Below, one piece after another: positions 4,549 to 6,153 of a DNA stretch of 64,000 bases (position 1 is its first letter; each line of letters begins with the position of its first letter). The stretch is from the NCBI RefSeq assembly GCF_009834535.1, contig NC_045696.1, forward strand, positions 51,586,001 through 51,650,000. Reading direction: 5' to 3'. This DNA is from Camelus ferus. Lineage: Eukaryota. The notes under the pieces were generated by a model. It did no database searches. It was not told the origin of the DNA and saw nothing but the letters and a program-made list of their open reading frames with translations. A program made the position numbers and the translations under genes.

Positions 4549-6153
4549 CTGTGTGTACGAACATGTGCTTGACGTAGTTCTGTTTGGCGGTGAAAGTCTT
4601 GTTGCAGAGAGTGCACTCATAAGGCTTTTTTTCGCCCTGCCCACTGGCTGTGCTGTGGCCGGCGGATGGGGCCAGGGGCTGTGGCGCTGGCAGCTGTGCA
4701 GTAAAGGTCGACAGGCCGGGCTGGGACACTGTCACAAACTGGGTCTGCTGGCCTGCCAGGGGCTGTGGCAGGCTGAAGAGAAAAGGCTTGGGGCCGCTGC
4801 CCGCAGGCTGGGTAGTGAAGAGGGCCGGTAGGTAGGTGTTGCCGGCTGTGCCAATGACCTGTGTGTTGCTGGTTAAGGTCAGAGGCATCCTCAAGTTGCT
4901 GGTGAGGGTTTCCGTCTGGCGTAAATAGAGCTGGGTACTTGGCAATGGCTGCCCGATGGACGTGTTGACCGAAGGCTGCTGCAGGACATTCTTGTCGGAG
5001 CTGTTGCTGACAGTGATCACCGTGTTGTCCATCTCCACCTCGTTACTTCTTTCCGGGGAGGAGGCACCTGTCTCCAGCTGGTGCAGCGGCGGGACGCCCT
5101 CGGCGGGGGCTTCCGCGGCTTGCTCCGGTTGGGCGGGTTCGGCCTGGCTGTCCCGCGCCACCCCGGGCCCGAACTGCTGCTCCACGGAGTCAGGCTCGGT
5201 GCCTATGGAGGAGCTGACGCCCGAGTCGAAGCTTTCGCCCTTGGGCTCACTCTCGGTGCCCTCGGCCTGGTCGGTGTCTTCTGTGCACTCCTCGGACTCA
5301 TTGCGCTCCAAGATCTGCACCCTTTGCTGCCCGTAGTAGTCGTAGTCGTCCTCCATCTCCTGCTTGATGTGAATGTTGCCCACTAGGGTCTGGATGCGCA
5401 CGGGCCGGGGCTGCTTGCGGCAGTGCGTGGTCTCGGGGGTGGTGGACAGGTAGCGCTCCATCTGCTGCGAGCGCTCGTGGATGCGCGTGATCCAGCTGGG
5501 GTCTTCCATGTGGTGGTCGCGGGGCAGGCCGAGCGCCGTCTCGTGGTGGCTGACCACCGCGCCGCTGTAGAAGGAGCGCTCGCCGCTGCCGTTCTGCATG
5601 GAGCAGGCGTAGAGCGCCGAGTAGATCCTGTCCACGCTGTGCTGTGGATGGCTCTGCAGGTAGCCCGACTCGGTGTCGCTGCTCTGGCCCGATGTGCCTG
5701 ACTCGGGAGTGCCCCGTGGCGTGTCCTGGCCGGAGTCCTGGATCCCCGGGAACACATCGCCCACGTTCTGCGACACGATGCGCGTGCACTCATCGATGAC
5801 CGTTTTGATCTGCAGGATACTGGCGGCCGTGAGGATCTGCAGGGCTTCCGACTGCGAGACGCGCAGCACGCCGCTGTACATGAAGTCAATGAGCTTTTGC
5901 ACCGACTGCACCGACACCACGGACGGGATCTCAATGTCGCTGTAGCCCAGCAGCAGCTTGTCCTGGAAGAAGGGGCTGCCTGCGGCCAGCACGCAGCGAT
6001 GTGCGCGCAGCATGCTCCCGTGGATGCGCACCGTCACGTCACAGAAGTGGCCACGGTTGCGCTGCTCGTTGAGGGTCTCGAGCACGGAATTGCTGAAGTT
6101 GTGAAGGTTGATGCTGTGAATGCGCTCGGTCATCCCCTTGCAACTGATGTCAC
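4549..6153 (-). CDS. ZBTB20: ZBTB20 large internal coding exon (1605 nt; codon 67 base 2 to codon 602 base 1): short-isoform Met74, BTB domain, acidic/Pro-Gln linker, zinc finger 1
   Basis: The translation [45 protein letters not shown]...[27 protein letters not shown] matches mammalian ZBTB20 as I know it. The acceptor is ctgtcttgctgtccAG (AG at 6155-6154) with a CTGAC branch-like motif at 6192-6188. The donor is ACAG|GTGAGC (GT at 4548-4547). Phase is 1 at both ends. Confidence 0.98.
4553..4621 (-). other. ZBTB20: C2H2 zinc finger 1 ([23 protein letters not shown]); the TGEKP-type linker is interrupted by the following intron
   Basis: Y-x-C-x2-C-x3-F-x8-H-x3-H spacing, followed by ACA G| and the donor. 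Confidence 0.96.
5774..6073 (-). other. ZBTB20: BTB/POZ domain coding segment (approx. residues 94-193)
   Basis: [59 protein letters not shown] is the canonical ZBTB-type BTB pattern. Boundaries are approximate. Confidence 0.95.

Follow-up and report, generated by a model that had tools for sequence, protein, structure and literature searches.

The large internal coding exon of ZBTB20 in Camelus ferus, located at positions 4549..6153 on the minus strand of the 64,000-nt stretch of DNA analyzed here (referred to as the window), is the orthologue of the exon that forms the single-exon circle hsa_circ_0005332, already known in human. The first-pass annotation of the window, which drew attention to the stop-free reading frame that this exon would carry if circularized, thus amounts to a rediscovery of a catalogued human circRNA, the endless frame of which is explained by the usual structure of the gene. 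The reading that we favor, with a probability of roughly 0.6, is that the circle forms and is effectively non-coding; what we infer are its existence in C. ferus, its route of biogenesis and the absence of a meaningful protein product. Under this model, part of the ZBTB20 pre-mRNA would probably be back-spliced, as in human, to yield a stable 1605-nt single-exon circle, and back-splicing would take place between long introns and need no inverted repeats, a route described for start-codon-containing ('AUG') circRNAs. The endless loop is a by-product, since this exon is wholly coding and frame-symmetric in the long linear isoform, which makes every circle formed from it stop-free. Most likely untranslated or nearly so, the circle would act, if at all, as an RNA or by drawing pre-mRNA away from linear splicing.

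Flanked by canonical splice sites (AG acceptor, GT donor), the exon upon recomputation measured 1605 nt (535 codons), entering and leaving in phase 1, exactly as first annotated. Judged by its translation, which is 98% identical to named mammalian ZBTB20 proteins across the entire query (100%), it is the BTB-to-first-finger exon of the ZBTB20 orthologue. The BTB/POZ domain corresponds to residues 27-128 of the exon-encoded protein (5768..6073; Pfam PF00651, E 2.4e-24, with relatives in the PDB) and the first C2H2 zinc finger to residues 511-533 (4553..4621; Pfam PF00096, E 0.0013), this finger being wholly contained in the exon. Finger 1 alone scored 19.5 bits against PF00096, below the curated cut-off of 25.2, and full-length homologues have a finger at the same position. 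No structured RNA was found in the exon by Rfam. ZBTB20 is described as having two isoforms, S and L, in a review (PMC10887282). The start codon of the short isoform is located 20 nt inside the exon (6131..6133), downstream of a 20-nt leader (6134..6153) that is untranslated in the short isoform and coding in the long one. On the same strand, a 25,668-nt upstream intron (6154..31821) separates the large exon from a 188-nt long-isoform coding exon running from phase 2 to phase 1 (31822..32009), which is itself preceded by the final 11 nt of the exon carrying the long-isoform start codon (32381..32391). Splicing in frame of 32391-32381, 32009-31822 and the large exon yielded a continuous 601-residue ORF, 588 of the 601 residues of which are identical in the database ZBTB20 long isoform (P0001). 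The downstream intron is visible at positions 1..4548, the exon encoding fingers 2-5 lying outside the window.

Two observations were made on the 3′ side of the exon. An annotated 602-residue 'isoform X4' (P0003), belonging to a cluster of 100 members, terminates directly after finger 1. A protein made of BTB, linker and finger 1 is thus predicted to arise from a linear transcript as well, and its presence would blur the antibody-based detection of a circle product. Furthermore, the minus-strand reading frame extends for about 80 codons beyond the large exon into the downstream intron (4301-4548), and five poly(A)-signal hexamers are found further down in this intron (959-3727). Intronic polyadenylation, which would produce a truncated ZBTB20 protein, is one possible reading of this frame run-on and these hexamers.

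The large exon was next closed head to tail in silico. The coding frame of the resulting circle contained 0 stops per lap, compared to 9 and 10 in the other two sense frames, confirming that this frame is stop-free as claimed. The codon created at the back-splice junction encodes Gly in place of the Cys found in the linear long isoform, and this too agreed with the sense junction codon originally proposed. The first ATG is found at nucleotide 21 of the exon (window position 6133), matching the earlier placement of the short-isoform ATG 20 nt past the junction, with G at -3 and A at +4. One lap encodes 535 residues (58.5 kDa), and in silico digestion yielded the junction-specific tryptic peptide that had been named, 12 residues in length. 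A hypothetical circle comprising both the 188-nt exon and the large exon, in contrast, would measure 1793 nt and be out of frame.

Given the structure of the ZBTB20 gene, the endless frame is not more than expected by chance. It is endless because the whole exon is coding and frame-symmetric (phase 1 in and out) in the long linear isoform, and the 20-nt leader is devoid of an in-frame stop because it, too, is coding in that isoform. The only new codon of the circle is the junction codon and, when the first two bases of the exon were kept fixed and the preceding base varied, all four possibilities were sense codons (Ser, Arg, Gly and Cys). Endless frames are reported to account for 14% of human circles (PMC9242994), and infinite ORFs for 8% of AUG circles (PMC6487579). 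Among the 120 matches listed out of 473 hits, the long-isoform junction was found in 14, from mammals, birds, reptiles, frogs and teleosts, an in-frame leader in 36, and a Gly directly after finger 1 in 115; beyond that Gly, 23 of these 120 matches, mostly raw contigs, continue with sequence other than finger 2, which we interpret as read-through into the intron from a donor at an unchanged position. Neither a back-splice junction nor two BTB starts were found in any of the 120 matches listed, in a search covering 293-933 residues, a range in which two full laps could not appear, and this absence therefore carries no weight. Conservation of exon length modulo 3 and of a sense junction codon across vertebrates had been put forward as a test of the circle. 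Since frame symmetry is in any case a requirement of the linear long isoform, both properties would be conserved without any circle and the test is therefore unable to discriminate. Frame conservation as a sign of circle function, being forced by the long isoform, was rejected on the same grounds.

The first-pass annotation had mentioned a human single-exon circRNA of the orthologous exon, and correctly so: hsa_circ_0005332 has been published by several independent groups. The circle is assigned to ZBTB20 at chr3:114069120-114070725 (hg19) with a span of 1605 in one report (PMC10700118), and the exon in the window agrees with it in length and borders (1605 nt here; 114070725-114069120 = 1605). 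According to three further studies, its junction reads are present in epidermal stem cells (PMC5798954), it is listed among the circles raised in glioma (PMC6737709), and it was measured by junction-spanning RT-qPCR in plasma vesicles (PMC12823818); the human junction primer published in the latter study spans the joint predicted from the C. ferus exon. In Table S2 of Stagsted et al. (PMC6487579), the rows of which are not strictly ordered by junction reads, hsa_circ_0005332 appears as the 57th data row; it is supported by 20,443 junction reads from ENCODE and labelled 'Ambiguous circRNA', and the 9 other ZBTB20 circles among the matches listed have at most 44 junction reads each. In mouse ILC3 cells, circZbtb20 is reported in reviews to work as an RNA, as an Alkbh5-Nr4a1 mRNA bridge (PMC8534545, PMC9909350, PMC10887282). 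A mouse 'circZbtb20' entry has its miRNA site annotated as 'Intron' (PMC8264595), and this entry may therefore be a different circle; a neuronal circZbtb20 is named without coordinates (PMC8760052).

Turning to C. ferus itself, the exon was fully present (share 1.00) in all four same-organism runs recorded as RNA, evidence of its presence but not of its circularity. Among the 24 same-organism runs listed, some part of the exon was found in 23, and half or more of it in 18. The upstream intron is followed on the other side of the exon by a downstream intron of at least 4,548 nt that continues past the window edge. No complementary repeats were found between the visible flanking introns, where the best inverted alignments scored 42-48 compared to shuffle means of 44-47 in five out of five bins (20 shuffles per bin, the downstream intron being covered for 4,548 nt only). 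The sole intron alignment to score above shuffles (score 86) matched 3676-3861 with 8073-8264 in the same orientation; the two old repeat copies flanking the exon, which we take to be MIR, therefore cannot pair with each other. Biogenesis driven by inverted repeats thus found no support in the visible introns, although distant complementary repeats may lie beyond the window in the downstream intron.

With regard to the repeat content of the window as a whole, self-comparison of the 64,000 nt revealed one interspersed repeat pair only at E < 1e-4, indicating a scarcity of young repeats in the region. A tRNA-like head at 42173-42244 on the plus strand (Rfam, 38.6 bits; tRNA-Leu according to ARAGORN), followed by an A-rich tail to ~42330, most likely belongs to a tRNA-derived SINE rather than to a tRNA gene, and presumably resembles a camelid SINE.

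Abundant AUG-type circles are reported to form independently of Alu elements, to be conserved and to be associated with long introns (PMC6487579). The repeat-poor visible flanks of the ZBTB20 exon fit this Alu-independent long-intron route, yet leave room for there being no circle here. It is conceivable, if unlikely, that the exon does not circularize appreciably in C. ferus, either because the human circle needs primate-specific repeats or because the junction signal reported in human arises partly from template switching or linear exon repeats. In favor of this, no complementary repeats were found in the visible flanks, and the acceptor (exon border 6153) and donor (exon border 4549) have 7 identical bases in common across their splice sites (3 + 4), which may favor template switching and mis-mapping and is to be kept in mind when considering short-read and RT evidence. 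The intronic annotation of the mouse miRNA site, if it does denote another circle, points the same way. Against this stand the Alu independence, conservation and long-intron association of the abundant AUG-type circles, the detection of the human junction by several independent groups, and the same-organism RNA runs that carry the exon, in the sense of presence only.

Assuming that the circle forms, its translation was considered in light of published screens and of the sequence of the exon. The rolling-circle translation that the first-pass annotation had envisaged was not supported, 'ZBTB' occurring 0 times among 2,721 junction spectra and initiation-type motifs not being enriched. More precisely, 'ZBTB' had 0 occurrences across seven supplementary files of Fan et al. 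(PMC9242994), inclusive of the 2,721-spectrum junction table, in which the controls PSAP (15) and PFAS (14) were found. The MS search of that study included endless frames, but out of 177,907 candidate peptides it yielded no more than 990 junctions, and the absence of ZBTB is therefore weak evidence. According to the same authors, translation is more efficient on stop-free circles, which are over-represented among the MS-supported cases and account for about half of them, and reporter circles consisting of coding sequence only were translated in a rolling fashion, some of their products being proteasome-sensitive. Stagsted et al., for their part, detected neither ribosome phasing nor peptides when examining the top 1,000 circles (PMC6487579); infinite ORFs were left out of their Ribo-seq analysis and their MS database was built from the same set, and their negative result therefore does not test the ZBTB20 circle, which probably falls outside both assays.

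In the exon itself, no excess of m6A or AU-rich motifs was found relative to 500 synonymous shuffles, as gauged by proxy motifs and a subset of the published hexamers: DRACH sites numbered 25 (28.6 +/- 3.0 in shuffles), all-A/T hexamers 3 (1.6 +/- 1.6), and published probe hexamers, with 5 of 97 counted, 1 (0.3 +/- 0.5). The GC content of the exon is 63%, whereas reported initiation elements are AU-rich. Six DRACH sites are located within 250 nt upstream of the ATG on the circle. No account of translation of the ZBTB20 circle or of its endless frame was found in the freely accessible papers searched. ZBTB20 was not found in the supplement of PMC5387669, the long tables of which consist of fly data or are unlabelled, nor in that of PMC11245404, the search of which had no positive control, both negatives being uninformative, and ZBTB was absent from the main-text passages of PMC11724281 that were searched.

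It is doubtful, on these grounds, that low-level rolling translation starts from the in-frame ATG to produce repeats that would either pair with one another in cis or fail to fold, and then undergo proteasomal degradation without serving any function. The abundance of the circle in human speaks in favor of such a scenario, as do an ATG with a purine at -3 located 20 nt past the junction, the six upstream DRACH sites, the rolling translation of coding-only reporter circles with proteasome-sensitive products, and the FBXL17 quality control reported for BTB-ZF domains, which assemble during translation (bioRxiv 10.1101/2025.08.25.672138; a preprint that does not name ZBTB20). It is countered by the lack of a ZBTB junction peptide in the table of Fan et al., by motif counts that do not exceed those of synonymous shuffles, and by the fact that linear exon repeats from plasmid reporters can give false positives.

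The first-pass annotation had gone further in proposing that BTB concatemers sequester normal ZBTB20, which found no support either, no evidence of translation having been found and the 2,721 junction spectra containing no 'ZBTB'. The BTB homodimer is a textbook pair, and the best PDB matches, 4U2N and 4U2M, each carry two BTB domains on one chain; we take them to be tethered dimers whose BTB domains are paired in cis. For a BTB domain newly made on the circle, the nearest partner would be the previous-lap BTB on the same chain, each being followed by another 535 residues downstream, or that emerging from a neighboring ribosome on the same circle. Tandem BTB domains should thus pair with each other, and sequestration is therefore unlikely; the existence of two-BTB single chains argues in the same direction, self-pairing and degradation appearing likelier than the capture of normal ZBTB20. 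According to the same preprint, in which ZBTB20 is not named, BTB dimers are intertwined and form during translation, the monomers close stably, and FBXL17 exerts quality control (10.1101/2025.08.25.672138), and later exchange with the product of the linear mRNA would then be disfavored. In favor of sequestration, each 535-residue lap would contain a whole BTB domain plus finger 1, the BTB domain tolerates an N-terminal extension as the long isoform shows, ZBTB20 missense variants are considered possible dominant negatives in a review (PMC10887282), and one large negative study skipped endless frames (PMC6487579). Nothing in the sequence requires this model, and that stable multi-BTB concatemers lacking fingers 2-5 would act as a natural dominant negative by sequestering normal ZBTB20 is, altogether, very improbable. 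Just as improbable is its most elaborate version, wherein one of the most abundant human circRNAs, conserved in other mammals, would be translated lap after lap from the native ATG into poly-BTB chains that capture nascent ZBTB20 and tune the dose of the repressor in hippocampus, liver or pituitary, even though such a product would have been missed by earlier negative screens because endless frames were excluded from them.

A circle that forms and is effectively non-coding thus remains our preferred reading of the ZBTB20 exon. The ZBTB20 circle provides a clean test case in that it is abundant in human, harbors a native start codon and would generate a 12-residue junction peptide, and it belongs to the class left out by the largest negative Ribo-seq/MS study (PMC6487579). 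A clear yes or no would bear on whether endogenous rolling-circle translation reaches meaningful levels. A multi-BTB product binding ZBTB20, if true, would represent a new mode of control for a dose-sensitive transcription factor.

Compared to known circRNAs, the closest relative of the candidate circle is hsa_circ_0005332, with which it shares the gene, the 1605-nt span and the junction; the circle has been observed in human, whereas the C. ferus exon is known here from sequence alone. The AUG and 'ambiguous AUG' circRNAs (PMC6487579), among which circHIPK3, circSLC8A1 and circZBTB44, resemble it in that the ATG of one isoform lies inside the exon, and in their long flanking introns and high abundance (that of the human circle in the present case); they are also described as lacking nearby inverted repeats, and none scored above shuffles in the visible part of the ZBTB20 introns. 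They differ from it in that most of them reach a stop about 10 codons past the junction, the ZBTB20 circle falling within the 8% with infinite ORFs. The rcORF circRNAs circPSAP, circPFAS and circABHD12 of Fan et al. 2022 (PMC9242994) have in common with the ZBTB20 circle a length divisible by three, a stop-free host frame and an in-frame start codon; in contrast to it, they come with junction peptides or tagged-product evidence, ZBTB20 being absent from the 2,721-spectrum table of that study. CircEGFR and the tau circles, which are described as rolling-translated, fall in the same group. Mouse ILC3 circZbtb20, finally, arises from the same host gene and acts as an RNA according to reviews, but may not use the ZBTB20 exon studied here.
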